A stretch of 64,000 bases of DNA from Eledone cirrhosa (lineage: Eukaryota): positions 228,966,001 to 229,030,000 of the forward strand of contig OZ024742.1 in NCBI GenBank assembly GCA_964016885.1, in the 5' to 3' direction. Each line of letters starts with the position of its first letter. Position 1 is the first letter of the stretch. Below are positions 1,279-63,428 of this stretch, one piece after another. The translations under genes were made by a program, and so were the position numbers. The notes under the pieces are model-generated. The model saw only the letters and a program-made list of their open reading frames with translations. It was not told the DNA's origin and ran no database searches.

Positions 1279-4177
1279 TAGAAAGATTTGAATGGATACA
1301 GTTTAGTTGAAAGGAATTTATTGACACGTGTTTCTATAACAGTTACATAACCTAAAACAGCTATCTACAAACTTTTAGTTATGCAGACATTCAATATTTC
1401 AATGTTATTATTTACTGTCATTTCATCAGAATAATATTACTGAGGACCTATTTAGTTTTTATAGAGAATATTAGGAGGGAGGGGTGAAGTTGTTAGAAGA
1501 ATAGTTGAAGGAGTGGTTTTTCGATAGCAGTGAGAATTCTTGGTGGCAGTGAGTAATTAGATTCCCATCTGTTGTTTTGACATTTTTTATGGAATATATT
1601 ATTGGTTATTTTTCTAAATCTATAGAAGGATTAGAGATAGTAAAGATATGCGTGGTTGGTTTTGTGTTTGCACTTAACATTCAGACTTAAATTTTTCTTT
1701 CAAGTGTACGTATTCTTTCACCCACGCATTCACACACAAATATATTTGCACACCTCTACAAAATACATATACTCACAATTCACATATTCATACTTACATA
1801 TATATACACATGCATACACATATATATACACACATGTATTCATGTACATACATACGCGCTCATGTGTATACATTTTCATACTCAACTTATCTTTATATAT
1901 ACACACGTATAGACACACACATATATACATACATACTCTAGTCCATGTGTACACACATACGCATACATACACATCCACATACACATACATACATACACAT
2001 ATATATATACATATATACATACACATATATATATATATATATATATATATATATATATATATATATACATATACCCACACACACACATATACACATACAC
2101 ACATATATATATATATATATAAGCACTTTAATACATGAATACACTTACATCTAACTATACACATCAAACATATATATATATTTACTTATTTATATACATT
2201 TTCACATATATATACATACTTATGGACGTTTTTAGACACATTCATTATCGCATATTTGTACCTATTCTCATCAGCATATCTTTTCATTATTAGTATGGTA
2301 ATTTAAGGTTATTAATATATGTTGAGAAGAGATTGTTTTTATATTTTTCTAACTAGATTAAGGTTTATATAGTTGGGGGATGTCCCTCTTTTATGTAATA
2401 TTTGGCTTGTAGTGGGAAAAAAGGGTTTTAGTTCTGTGACGGCAGAATAATGTTCGTTCAATTCTGTTATTCAGCAGTTTCTTCTTGTGTGTGATTATGT
2501 AATAAATCTCAAGATTACACAATTTGCAGAAATTTTGGCTCCTGGAAAAGCTTTGGGTTTTAGCTAATTTTTCCCATTTTAGGGTAAACTTTTGATTGCT
2601 ATCCCTGAGCGTCCAAGCTTTTTCTGCTAAAGTTGTTACATTTCTTTGGCTCTGAGCCAAAGAAATGTAACAACTTTAGCAGAAAAAGCTTGGACGCTCA
2701 GGGATAGCAATCAAAAGTTTACCCTAAAATGGGAAAAATTAGCTAAAACCCAAAGCTTTTCCAGGAGCCAAAATTTCTGCAAATTGTGTAATCTTGAGAT
2801 TTATTACATAATCACACACAAGAAGAAACTGCTGAATAACAGAATTGAACGAACATTATTCTGCCGTCACAGAACTAAAACCCTTTTTTCCCACTACAAG
2901 CCGAATATTACATAAAAGAGGGACATCCCCCAACTATATAAACCTTAATCTAGTTAGAAAAATATAAAAACAATCTCTTCTCAACATATATTAATAACCT
3001 TAAATTACCATACTAATAATGAAAAGATATGCTGATGAGAATAGGTACAAATATGCGATAATGAATGTGTCTAAAAACGTCCATAAGTATGTATATATAT
3101 GTGAAAATGTATATAAATAAGTAAATATATATATATGTTTGATGTGTATAGTTAGATGTAAGTGTATTCATGTATTAAAGTGCTTATATATATATATATA
3201 TATATGTGTGTATGTGTATATGTGTGTGTGTGGGTATATGTATATATATATATATATATATATATATATATATATATATATATATATATATATATATATA
3301 TATATATATATATATATATATGTGTATGTATATATGTATATATATATGTGTATGTATGTATGTGTATGTGGATGTGTATGTATGCGTATGTGTGTACACA
3401 TGGACTAGAGTATGTATGTATATATGTGTGTGTCTATACGTGTGTATATATAAAGATAAGTTGAGTATGAAAATGTATACACATGAGCGCGTATGTATGT
3501 ACATGAATACATGTGTGTATATATATGTGTATGCATGTGTATATATATGTAAGTATGAATATGTGAATTGTGAGTATATGTATTTTGTAGAGGTGTGCAA
3601 ATATATTTGTGTGTGAATGCGTGGGTGAAAGAATACGTACACTTGAAAGAAAAATTTAAGTCTGAATGTTAAGTGCAAACACAAAACCAACCACGCATAT
3701 CTTTACTATCTCTAATCCTTCTATAGATTTAGAAAAATAACCAATAATATATTCCATAAAAAATGTCAAAACAACAGATGGGAATCTAATTACTCACTGC
3801 CACCAAGAATTCTCACTGCTATCGAAAAACCACTCCTTCAACTATTCTTCTAACAACTTCACCCCTCCCTCCTAATATTCTCTATAAAAACTAAATAGGT
3901 CCTCAGTAATATTATTCTGATGAAATGACAGTAAATAATAACATTGAAATATTGAATGTCTGCATAACTAAAAGTTTGTAGATAGCTGTTTTAGGTTATG
4001 TAACTGTTATAGAAACACGTGTCAATAAATTCCTTTCAACTAAACTGTATCCATTCAAATCTTTCTATTTTTCTCCGGATTACTTTTGGAACTACAACTG
4101 GAACCGTCGAGCAAACTCTACGTGAGCTGATAATCTACTGTGTGTAATATTTATATTACAACACAACGGAAAATACT
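1279..4177 (+). mobile_element. 5'-truncated Penelope-like element forming a 2.8-kb fold-back palindrome (arms 1279-2652 and 2654-4067)
   Basis: Mirror ORFs 2391-2660(-) and 2646-2915(+) encode a PLE GIY-YIG C-terminus (W..L..KWEKL..CKLCNLE..I..LLNNR.E...CRH..K); 1-nt centre at 2653; flanked by (TA)n. Confidence 0.85.
2646..2915 (+). pseudogene. Penelope-like GIY-YIG endonuclease C-terminal fragment
   Basis: CxLC..E..I....LLNxRxE....CRH motif typical of PLE endonuclease ends; mirrored on the minus strand at 2391-2660. Confidence 0.75.
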
Positions 4178-4530
4178 GTATATATATATACATATATATA
4201 TACATACATATATACATACATATATATATACATACATATATATACATATATATATACATACATATATATACATATATATATATATATATATCGATATATA
4301 TCGATATATAAATGAAAGGTATAGAAAACATTGTAGCGAAAAGCCAACAGTATTCCATAATATATATAATTAATTTTAAACATTTGACACATAATTAAAT
4401 TTTGACATATAATCATATTTTAACATTTGACTTTTTATTTAACTTTATTTTATATATATATTTATATACATATATATACAAAATAAAGTTAAATAAAAAG
4501 TCAAATGTTTAAAATTTAGCTTTGTTTATT

Positions 4531-4585
4531 ACTGCTATATATAATTCAGTGACAGCCATCTTTGGCTGTGACCTCTTCAGGCAGT
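4531..4585 (-). ncRNA. Hammerhead-like motif (degenerate, GAAT instead of GAAA)
   Basis: Minus strand reads actgc CTGAAGA g-gtcacagcca-aaga-tggctgtcac-t GAAT tatata TA gcagt; stems I and II pair. Confidence 0.55.
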
Positions 4586-4871
4586 CCGAATTAGTGTGGT
4601 ATAGACAAGTACATATGTTGTTGAGGTGTTTAACTTTGTCAATACTCTGATATGCCCAGTTCCTGGTTGGGTTGTTATTTCACTGAGGAACTGGAATCAT
4701 AACTTTATTTTACATTACTCCGGAGTAACCAAACCAACCTACGCACTTCGTCGAGTGCTCCAGCCTGCATACTGAGGTGTTGGTATACAACCAACATATA
4801 CTCAAAATCTACACACATATATATATATATATATATATATATATATATATATATATATATATATATATATA

Positions 4872-5191
4872 CGAGGGTAATCCCAAAAGTAAGGTCTCCA
4901 AAGCGTTGGAGACGCAGAGAAACTGTTCGTACGCCTATTGGCAACACTGTTGTGATTGGTGATTCCTTCACTCCCAAACAAGCATGCGCGCGTTTCGCTG
5001 GGATGCTCAATCTTGGCTTGGCAGCCGTTGAGAATGGAGCTCCCGTTGAACGCTACCGCCAAGTGCGAATTTCGCGCAGTTATTATATACGAGGGCAATC
5101 CCAAAGTAAGGTTTCACGAAGCATCATCCACAGGATTTTAACAGAAAAGTTGCAACATCGGAAGGAGACCTTACATTTGGGATTTCCCTCG
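4872..5191. mobile_element. Tc1/mariner-type MITE with a duplicated left TIR
   Basis: TA-cgagggtaatcccaaaagtaaggtctcc matches the reverse complement of ggagaccttacatttgggatttccctcg (5164-5191); second left-TIR copy at 5090; sits in (TA)n. Confidence 0.7.
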
Positions 5192-5228
5192 TGTATATAT
5201 ATATATATATATATATATATATATATAT

Positions 5229-62056: not shown

Positions 62057-62494
62057 ATTAGTTTTGCGAGGTTTTTGATATGAAATCGTGTGTCGAAACA
62101 AATATTGTTATACTTGGGGAGGGTCATATTTGTGTAATATTGCCAGAATTAATAACAGAACACACTCACTGTTTGGTTGGTTTTCGCTTTTCGCTTCTGT
62201 GCCTTTTATATCGGTAATCTAATTTATTCGGTCCTCAATGTTGCCATTGACTGACCAACGGTCACAAATAATACAGATACAATATAGACACAAACACATG
62301 TGTTTGAGTCTATATTGTATCTGTATTATTTTTGATCGTCGGTCAGTCGATGGCAACATTGAGGACCGAGTAAGTTAGATTACCGATATAAAAGGCACAG
62401 AAGCGAAAATCGAAAACCAACCAAACAGTGAGTGTGTTCTGTTATTAATTCTGGCAATATTACACAAATATGACCCTCGCCAAGTATAACAATA
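62057..62494 (-). mobile_element. Family F fold-back copy
   Basis: Turn aaacaca|tgtgttt at 62298/62299; arms of about 195 bp with several mismatches. Confidence 0.8.
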
Positions 62495-62932
62495 TATAAA
62501 TATAAATATATATCTAAATATCTAAATATAAATATATATATATATATATATATATATATATATATATATATATATATATATATATATATATATATATATA
62601 TATATATATATATATATATATATATATATATATATATATATATATATAAATATATATATAGATACACACACACACACACACACACACACACATATATATA
62701 TATATATATATATATATATATATATAACCAGAAGGAGAGGTAGGAATAGAAGTATAGACGTTCAATAGTTCTGTCTATTCTTTGTTAAATGAAGTAACAA
62801 AAGCTGAGTAGATGATGGTTTAACTATTGATGTAAGAATTAATATTCTTCTTTCTTCTCCTGTAACATCTATGTCTTTCATGGCATTGTTCAGAAAATCG
62901 AAATTAATTGATCGTGATAAAGGTTCACTTTT

Positions 62933-63017
62933 ATTTTGTATTCGTACCTAGATCACTAAACAAACACACAGAATTGCGTATGTGTGTATGTAGTGATCTA
63001 GGTACGAATAGAAAATA
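62933..63017. repeat. Short fold-back
   Basis: tattcgtacctagatcacta versus tagtgatctaggtacgaata. Confidence 0.75.
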
Positions 63018-63268
63018 CAATGTATGTATGTATGTATGTATGTATGTATGTATGTATGTATGTATGTATGTATGTATGTATGTATGTATGTATGTATGTA
63101 TGTATGTATGTATGTATGTATGTATGCATATATATATATATTTATATATATATATATAGATATATATATATATATACATATATATACATATATATGTATA
63201 AACATATAACTGTATACATATATATATATATATATATATATGTATATATATATATATATATAAATATA

Positions 63269-63428
63269 TAACGAAGGAAATGTGGTAAGGAACCAGGTGG
63301 ACCATAACGCACCAAAGTACTCAATACTTAGGGTATTAGAGTGGGTAATAGGAACCAGTAAGGCCAGTTAGTCCAGAATTAGCCGTCGAAACGGCTTGAG
63401 CTCAGCCGTCGGGGTCTTACTGGTTCCC
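63269..63428 (-). mobile_element. Family B fold-back copy with deletion
   Basis: ggaaccagtaag is mirrored by cttactggttcc. Confidence 0.7.

Follow-up and report, generated by a model that had tools for sequence, protein, structure and literature searches.

Here we show that palindromic inserts in the TA repeats of a 64,000-nucleotide stretch of Eledone cirrhosa DNA (assembly GCA_964016885.1, contig OZ024742.1, positions 228,966,001 to 229,030,000; hereafter the window) have, in most families, two fixed ends, one on a long and one on a short arm, and centres that vary between copies, and that three of the inserts (families K, B1 and R) contain coding sequence of Penelope-like elements (PLEs). 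Most of these mirror-image inserts are likely to be ends of PLEs. Because their two halves end at two fixed sites, the arms were probably copied from both sides of the cut, and not generated by a general host fold-back. We give about even chances to a two-primer form of twin priming, in which two copies start at two fixed sites of the RNA and are joined end to end.

In the window, which is animal repeat DNA rich in AT, TA tracts number well above 100, and the palindromes are confirmed to be real. An inverted-repeat scan that discounts microsatellite bases returned 28 rows in the 64 kb, amounting to about 23 distinct structures, with loops of at most 12 nt in half of the rows (14/28); ten 30-nt block shuffles gave 1-6 rows and 0-2 tight-loop rows. 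A 300-nt block shuffle is unusable as a null, as it leaves the palindromes intact (18-22 rows). An earlier, sequence-only reading of this DNA had named eleven palindrome centres, and all were recovered, ten by the scan and the remaining one (6145-50) by a BLAST match at 6125-6170 (E 2.5e-8). The same reading had claimed that the turn points differ among copies of one family, and within-family alignment bears this out: a miniature inverted-repeat transposable element (MITE) should have the same inverted ends and interior in every copy, whereas here the centres vary and half of the copies are solo, and the palindromes are thus not fixed terminal inverted repeats (TIRs) but inverted 5' segments that are particular to each copy and arose when it inserted.

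The two arms of a palindrome differ by 0-8% substitutions: 38/992 in B1, 9/193 in B2, 11/447 in I, 5/65 in P, 5/376 in L, 2/102 in D, 1/70 in J, 0/60 in H and 1/1375 in K. The ten coding changes between the B1 arms comprise nine non-synonymous ones (one of them a stop) and one synonymous one, and the coding differences are spread 3, 4 and 3 over the codon positions, which matches neutral decay after insertion; we conclude that the B1 arms began alike and decayed in the genome. In insert I, one arm holds a short interspersed nuclear element (SINE) with an 11-nt target duplication. Because of this SINE and the decay of the B1 arms, the palindromes cannot be read chimeras. Fold-back chimeras from amplification or assembly are accordingly hardly credible: the neutral divergence reaches 8%, the ends are family-specific, and the same ends and joints occur in independent public runs. 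What speaks for such chimeras is the near-identity of the K arms (one difference in 1,375 sites) and of those of H 55666 (none in 60), and that no read in the comparison was shown to bridge a junction of the window itself. The artefact argument from divergence does not cover K (centre 2653) or H 55666, whose arms are near-perfect and which could therefore be chimeras. The read comparison covered 5230-6717 with 5976-6121 skipped and mostly sampled other copies of the families; a short-piece read table showed 16 rows, none bridging 5369 or 6147, and gives no evidence either way. The runs used may derive from a close relative and not from the same species (best word share 0.46), and runs X1-X3 (share 0.14-0.15) were left out. 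In genome annotation, it is easy to mistake such palindromes for MITEs, for microRNA hairpins or for errors of assembly; Rfam returned for the whole window only sub-threshold microRNA-type matches, on microsatellites and hairpins.

The assignment to PLEs rests on protein and on hammerhead motifs. B1 matches an 803-aa reverse transcriptase (RT) protein labelled Octopus vulgaris by its source (56% identity, E 1e-41), and the alignment spans both the RT and the endonuclease parts of this one protein. Three inserts only point to the PLE order of an RT followed by a C-terminal GIY-YIG-type endonuclease in one open reading frame: B1 through this match to both parts, K and R through endonuclease-like homologues. 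None of the copies in the window is full-length. The K peptide has 699 homologues at E<=0.001; the motif Y/F-I/V/L-G-x-T is present in 54 of the best 150, and the one homologue shown carries an RT-type YRDD motif upstream. To us, these homologues read like the end of a Penelope-type GIY-YIG endonuclease; the same set also finds fragment R at 39958-40180, and a word-index protein search gave no match for the K peptide. A separate weak tblastn match to a K homologue (E 0.004) lies at 23794-24072 and may be what is left of an old PLE. The terminal repeats of PLEs typically carry hammerheads (PMC8557442, PMC11167929). A minimal type I hammerhead descriptor matched the window 8 times (B1, G, O and 22502), whereas 40 shuffles averaged 0.175 hits, and the core pattern alone occurs in A, B2, F, H, J, K, L and R. 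Inverted, 5'-truncated copies with a one-sided tail, another PLE feature, account for 20 of 40 inserts, with tails of 33-130 nt. These inserts are flanked by (TA)n, where a target site duplication cannot be read. On these grounds we consider it highly probable that the non-coding families, too, are PLEs. Some results count against this assignment: Pfam found no GIY-YIG domain (only RVT_1, below cut-off, for P0001), the core-pattern matches in A, B2, F, H, J, K, L and R lack a control and some have a changed base, a full-stem hammerhead descriptor gave 2 hits, inside the shuffle range of 0-3, and Rfam detected no hammerhead in the window's inserts.

According to the sequence-only reading, the same fold-back was shared by inserts derived from PLEs, RTE elements and tRNA-SINEs, and the folding of any complementary DNA (cDNA) end at fragile (TA)n, whatever the class, might be due to a Pol theta-like polymerase of the host or to one RT working in trans. 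This cross-class view mostly fails. Seven of the eleven named centres are PLE-type (2653, 5369, 13304, 25949, 34013, 55666 and 62298), the others belonging to the RTE-like E (6147), to D (19739) and to two unclassified inserts (56364 and 58463). PLE-type inserts are inverted in 20 of 40 cases, the common SINE in 0 of 11 and L1/Tx1 in 0 of 3, which gives a Fisher p of 7.6e-4 for the comparison of 20/40 with 0/14, and of 0.02 when E and D (3/4 inverted) are counted as non-PLE. In the 5' flanks of the SINE, the best inverted score is at most 8 in 11/11 copies. This tally was made by hand, which tells against leaning on it heavily; 4311-4816 and 59-617 were excluded as unclear cases, and a (TA)6+ tract is found within 51 nt for only 5 of the 14 SINE and L1/Tx1 controls, so that the control is a limited one. 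Within that limit, the idea of (TA)n as a fragile site is weakened, though no more than that, by the SINE and L1/Tx1 copies without inversion. Family F, with a hammerhead-like core, is inverted in none of its four copies in (TA)n (5484-5683, 19862-19963, 20032-20430 and 63552-63974), so that the inversion rate differs between PLE-type families.

Several observations were made on the elements of this comparison. Two long L1/Tx1-like elements in tandem, with endonuclease, RT and zinc-binding Pfam hits, occupy 41433-52871, and a shortened third copy lies at 9863-10848; all three are beside (TATC)n arrays, suggesting a target preference. A micro fold-back considered at the 5' end of the 9863 copy was rejected, the sequence being native in both long copies. 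At 25101-25399 and 28836-29157, two copies that are 91% alike consist of a B2 end, then the common SINE, then (TA)n, and possibly represent a chimeric unit copied as one. The insert at 4311-4816 could be a non-overlapping inversion: its minus strand has a variant hammerhead core, its plus strand a tail-like stretch, and an internal inverted repeat surrounds a TA run.

The E insert at 6147 is the case that fits snap-back exactly: the inverted segment of 30 nt ends internally, lies inside the first cDNA and has a native, foldable 4-bp stem with a 6-nt loop. Thus, this part of the sequence-only reading stands for E, and does not extend to one class-blind fold-back for the whole set. Seven further opposite-strand E joints occur at the same positions in both restriction-site-associated DNA (RAD) runs, with 54-129 reads and one start each; with reads this short, snap-back and twin priming look alike. 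Five of these joints lie near the 5' end and amount to about 4% of depth (393 of about 10,560 in X8), which is a lower bound. E is about 630 nt long and non-coding except for a terminal C2H2 finger that is below the Pfam cut-off and finger-like by its features, and its peptide has no homologue by word-index protein search. Loose ends behind 6714-6716 are (ATGT)n, with 1,366-1,533 reads per row; RTE tails are described as microsatellites, and E shares this 3' tail with bipartite non-autonomous RTEs. Together with the weak finger and a 5' untranslated-region motif that we take to be RTE-like, the tail makes E RTE-like, a label that is in part our assumption.

The claimed tRNA-SINE class corresponds to D (centre 19739). 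ARAGORN found no tRNA, with both copies cut upstream, and the Rfam match is a 15-nt T-arm only (1022-1036, E 0.19). Both copies have two ends about 55 nt apart, as in PLEs; no hammerhead core was seen in D (nor in P), and no partner long interspersed nuclear element (LINE) was found in the window. With the T-arm only, no hammerhead core and a PLE-like double end, D is not an independent class until its partner is known.

Taken as an account of the whole set, class-blind folding appears improbable, and cross-class host repair a weak reading of the finding. It can draw on the clean snap-back of E 6147 and the seven E joints in both RAD runs, on D (2/2 inverted) and P, which are without a hammerhead core, on a short, templated-looking insertion at the I centre, and on R2 snap-back in human cells (PMC11371274, PMC11331408). 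On the other hand, the contrast of 20/40 with 0/14 described above does not fit it, nor do the four uninverted F copies in (TA)n or the low share of the five E joints, and a repair step gives no family-specific second ends.

These second ends were obtained from within-family comparison. It had been claimed that the short arm usually stops internally; this holds for E and O, whereas in most families it stops at a second fixed, family-specific site beside (TA)n. Within a family, the short arms end at one site in five of six A palindromes (the sixth has two long arms), in 2/2 B2 and 3/3 H inserts, and in both copies each of G and I; the B1 short arm ends at a site homologous to that of B2, and the short ends of the two D copies lie within about 5 nt of each other. 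The long arm outruns the short-arm site by 33-130 nt, corresponding to the PLE "tail" that is described in PMC8557442 and was mapped to the stretch between two RT start sites in PMC11167929. The native sequence at each short end shares 1-4 nt with (TA)n. In A, H and D the short end is the first TA-like match; the short arms of K, B1 and I pass 33 (the longest 43 nt), 15 and 11 TA-like runs, respectively, before they end, so that in these families the end is not the first TA microhomology. In public reads, family A, with a depth of about 12,000-fold in one reduced-representation run, is adjoined by (TA)n at 5306 in 3,230 (X8) and 2,772 (X9) reads and in 57 contigs (X4). The two ends also occur in other combinations: long-long (16050), a solo short-ended copy (29874) and probably short-short (33939), the latter judged from a 17-nt match at about 28790 which suggests that the end shared by both J arms is the short site.

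The content of the arms also bears on how they were made. Seven inserts (923, 13445, 25796, 29215, 29755, 56844 and 63271) have short-arm sequence that is absent from the long arm; two (22050 and 24746), and part of 13445, show the opposite. Reads from elsewhere in the genome show eight family A joints; in seven of them, the end of the long arm falls within the tail or on its border (5272-5312), and the beginning of the short arm is near 5363-5375. Native context is known for three zero-loop centres, which sit on AT, CATG and AT, sequences that allow two DNA ends to anneal but do not allow a single strand to fold; a native stem is also absent at centre 13304. In three cases, two near-identical copies are turned towards one another with a TA run in between, as would be expected from two nicks in opposite stagger. 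Inversion with little or no duplication, the hallmark of L1-type twin priming, characterizes 29755, R 39959 and most of the A joints shown, not the twelve symmetric palindromes; R2-type snap-back does not apply to 5369, 13304, 19739 and 62298, which have no native stem, or to the seven inserts with extra short-arm sequence. The turn points of A (window 30970-30990 and the A centres) cluster within about 20 nt at the tip of the stem II hairpin of the hammerhead, which suggests that they mark a stall site or a site of RNA breakage.

In the scheme that we prefer, the PLE enzyme would nick a TA repeat on each of its strands, and a single RNA would be copied into DNA twice, once from either side, beginning at two fixed start sites which the ends of the arms mark. 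The copy from the outer site would become the long arm with its tail, and the short arm would come from the inner site, where 2-4 nt of TA microhomology would help. The RNA would stay intact, and the copy that lags behind would push the one ahead of it off this RNA. If both copies reached the same RNA end, the centre would be symmetric; if either stopped early, a spacer or arms without overlap would result. Finally, microhomology of 0-4 nt would serve to join the two 3' ends to one another, followed by fill-in. This scheme accounts for the fixed end, for arms without overlap, for the various combinations of ends and for zero loops. Given PLE identity, we somewhat favour the use of two primers; the shared RNA and the strand displacement are weaker parts of the scheme.

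A fold-back intrinsic to PLEs is a possibility that we hold to be clearly less probable. Here, the 3' end of the cDNA started at the outer site would fold, with bases added where needed, and be extended into a long hairpin; the endonuclease would cut the new strand at the tail border, and later one-sided deletions would create the asymmetric forms. Short arms of family A carry private variants of their own long arm, indicating that both arms came from one source, which fits both views. In favour of the fold-back, most short ends lie on an AT-rich, ATT-like site, a motif preferred by a PLE endonuclease in vitro (PMC11167929), and in PMC8557442 the tail is put down to resolution by the endonuclease; against it, the two RT start sites found in the in vitro study (PMC11167929) are where that study places the limits of the tail. 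A single folded strand would need untemplated bases each time at the zero-loop AT and CATG centres and at the stemless 13304, and a later deletion each time for the non-overlapping arms (29755 and the read joints); moreover, solo and double copies that end at the inner site show that this site can start a copy. On the other hand, several points weigh against two primers. Twelve centres are near-symmetric at distances from the short end that range from 60 to 1,370 nt, which fold-back explains directly, while the two-primer scheme depends on a further supposition, namely that the two copies frequently reach one and the same end of the RNA. Centres 26799, 16184 and 55666 (2-bp stem) could form a hairpin. 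Deletions inside arms with the centre kept (in the 25950 arm, the B1 arm and 34827) mean that arm asymmetry may be secondary. The A joints are a biased sample (126 and 84 rows not shown, 5421-5494 skipped, the reference's own centre unlisted), in which the reciprocal class of joints could not be seen. The tails are 33-130 nt long, as against 30-40 nt in print, and PMC3846280 reads junction palindromes as self-priming.

That the two arms stem from two independent insertions into one TA tract, or from rearrangement after insertion, we consider very improbable. TA tracts are heavily re-targeted, as the nesting at 15917-16366 illustrates, and R 39959 could be an inversion between native 13-nt inverted repeats; against this, where the arms meet they are separated by 0-12 nt that contain no TA, and they have private variants in common. 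It is likely that a separate minor class, comprising the short, internally ending segments of E 6147, O and R, arose by snap-back or L1-type twin priming, and two-primer priming and fold-back may both operate.

Twin target-primed reverse transcription from two fixed sites could also serve as a joint explanation of the inverted pseudo-long terminal repeats (pLTRs), the tails, the zero-loop palindromes and the tail-to-tail pairs, with the same enzyme mobilising D in trans. D, without a hammerhead and with its tRNA T-arm, would then be a SINE-like passenger of the Penelope enzyme. We put this combined proposal forward tentatively, as a rather long shot; neither of its two parts was found stated in the literature searched, subscription journals and Repbase lying outside the search.

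Table 1. Palindromic, inverted and related inserts in the window. +/- denote the strand.
Feature	Position	Structure
K, head-to-head PLE	1278..4178	1-nt centre 2653 between short arm 1278-2652 (-) and long arm 2654-4068 (+); tail of 110 nt at 4069-4178; C-terminus of endonuclease at 2655-2894; hammerhead-like core 3917
B1, head-to-head PLE	13445..15916	short arm (-) 13445-14740 with RT C-terminus and endonuclease; long arm (+) with RT motif piece, ~320-codon jump, endonuclease, hammerhead (15667) and 55-nt tail
B1, short copy	16369..16470 (-)	its tail faces that of 15814-15916; the TA tract between them also contains the 16050 palindrome
A palindrome, hammerhead-core PLE-type end	5230..5429	zero-nt loop on native AT, 5369/70; short end 5429
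A palindrome	13171..13357	1-nt centre 13304, without native microhomology
A palindrome	16050..16319	two long (tailed) arms, 6-nt loop
A palindrome	26648..26865	A/T-run centre, hairpin possible
A palindrome	34827..35003	small deletions in both arms
A inversion	63271..63428	long arm ends ~12 nt past short site; short arm ~50 nt further 5'
A solo, reference copy	30925..31116 (+)	hammerhead-like core ~30934; continues upstream
A-related solo copy	29874..29934 (+)	between TA tracts; ends at about the short site
H inversion	22050..22247	27-nt spacer, part of long arm
H inversion	29755..29854	arms without overlap (twin-priming geometry)
H palindrome	55606..55807	1-nt centre 55666 on native 7-nt interrupted palindrome
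B2 inversion	24746..25206	280-nt spacer, part of long arm
B2 palindrome	62057..62491	zero-nt loop on native AT, 62298/99
G palindrome	25796..26154	1-nt centre 25949; hammerhead in short arm (25886); long arm lacks ~76 nt
G inversion	29215..29495	short arm extends ~120 nt further 5' than long arm
J palindrome	33939..34088	hammerhead core, 10-nt loop; both arms end at one site
L inversion	35051..36352	475-nt spacer of unknown arm, 61-nt tail, variant hammerhead-like core
R, K-related endonuclease fragment	39959..41370	5' piece 39959-40047 is inverted, with a 13-nt inverted repeat at its bounds; hammerhead-like core at about 41182
I inversion	56844..58123	short-arm spacer; tail of 130 nt; one arm contains a SINE with target duplication (57678-57810)
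I, second copy	59-617	ends at the same short site
O, hammerhead-bearing end	7536..7720 (+)	core 7664; 27-nt inverted segment, 31-nt spacer; short arm ends internally
D, copy 1	923..1123	inverted long end 923-1003, then T-arm/B-box sense part to short site; arm overlap ~23 nt
D, copy 2, palindrome	19588..19845	zero-nt loop on native CATG (19739/40); long end left, ~55-nt tail
E with inversion, RTE-like short element	6115..6717 (+)	30-nt inverted 5' segment 6115-6144; short arm ends internally
E, second copy	18846..19445 (-)	no inversion
P, unclassified palindrome	58361..58560	1-nt centre 58463; ~33-nt tail on left arm; no hammerhead core seen
Unclassified 27-nt palindrome	56336..56393	arm recurs at 56735-56752 beside (TA)n
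Facing pair	25553..25772	two copies, 77/78 identical, central TA tract between
Facing pair	18653..18794	two near-identical short copies, central TA run; third copy ~23536
TIR element in TA	4872..5193	true TIR

Some features of the window stand apart from the PLE-type inserts. A fold-back origin was rejected for 4872..5193, a true TIR element which is presumably mariner-like. The small palindrome at 56336..56393 is either the inverted repeat of a DNA element or a mini head-to-head pair; nested between it and its recurring arm, 56394-56702 looks like a DNA element, with long diverged inverted ends starting ACTAG-like. An unclassified palindrome with a 12-nt loop at 62929-63020 ends at a (TATG)n array. 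The 727-nt TA array at 12049-12775, with a repeated CT insertion, is apparently a higher-order expansion. Finally, 31707-32270, in TA and with a SINE copy inside, is a probable DNA-transposon derivative, whose ends we take to be pogo/Tigger-like.

In the twin priming of L1, reportedly described by Ostertag and Kazazian in 2001, a second primer across the break is said to anneal inside the RNA. The inversion without duplication in 29755, in R and in several read joints is the same; the difference is that here the second site is fixed per family and that the arms usually overlap, giving palindromes. R2 snap-back in PRINT (transgene insertion that is precise and RNA-mediated; PMC11371274, PMC11331408), in which the cDNA 3' end primes itself before joining, fits E 6147, but it is a low-frequency event with no fixed second end and leaves the PLE-type majority unexplained. 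Two other systems resemble particular inserts. Non-LTR retrozymes (bioRxiv 10.64898/2026.07.22.740005) are likewise short and non-coding, with a type I hammerhead related to PLE pLTRs; they are defined as tandem arrays, whereas the inserts here are dispersed, truncated and often palindromic. Bipartite non-autonomous RTEs (Kojima 2018, PMC5786205) share with E the length of about 630 nt, the lack of coding sequence other than a C2H2 finger and the microsatellite tail, but differ in that the RTE origin of E is without confirmation by homology.

The closest relatives are the endonuclease-bearing PLEs (Craig et al. 2021, PMC8557442; Arkhipova et al. 2013, PMC3846280), for which inverted 5' copies and palindromic junctions have been published, as have tails and insertion into (TA)n. 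They have the same head-to-head copies and junction palindromes, the same optional tail at one end, a hammerhead near the end and (TA)n or AT-rich targets; the inserts analysed here differ in their 33-130-nt tails and in being mostly short, truncated copies, and the within-family comparison of arms points to two primers, in contrast to the self-priming proposed in 2013 (PMC3846280). The Poseidon PLE of Anolis (Frangieh et al. 2024, PMC11167929) provides the biochemical counterpart: in vitro, both strands of AT-rich targets are cleaved and extended, there are two RT start sites separated by the tail, and a dimer is predicted; that work does not, in its accessible portion, derive the inverted structure or the centre junction, while here the genomic products are seen. 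An annotation of octopus repeats reports 31 recently active PLE families and, in its accessible text, makes no mention of palindromes (PMC13282606), and the origin of the tandem and inverted structures of PLEs has been named an open question (PMC8557442). What is new here is a dense sample that bears on this open mechanism, and one odd family (D). Since several families have many young copies, their arm starts, overlap and centre microhomology can decide between fold-back and two primers without bench work.

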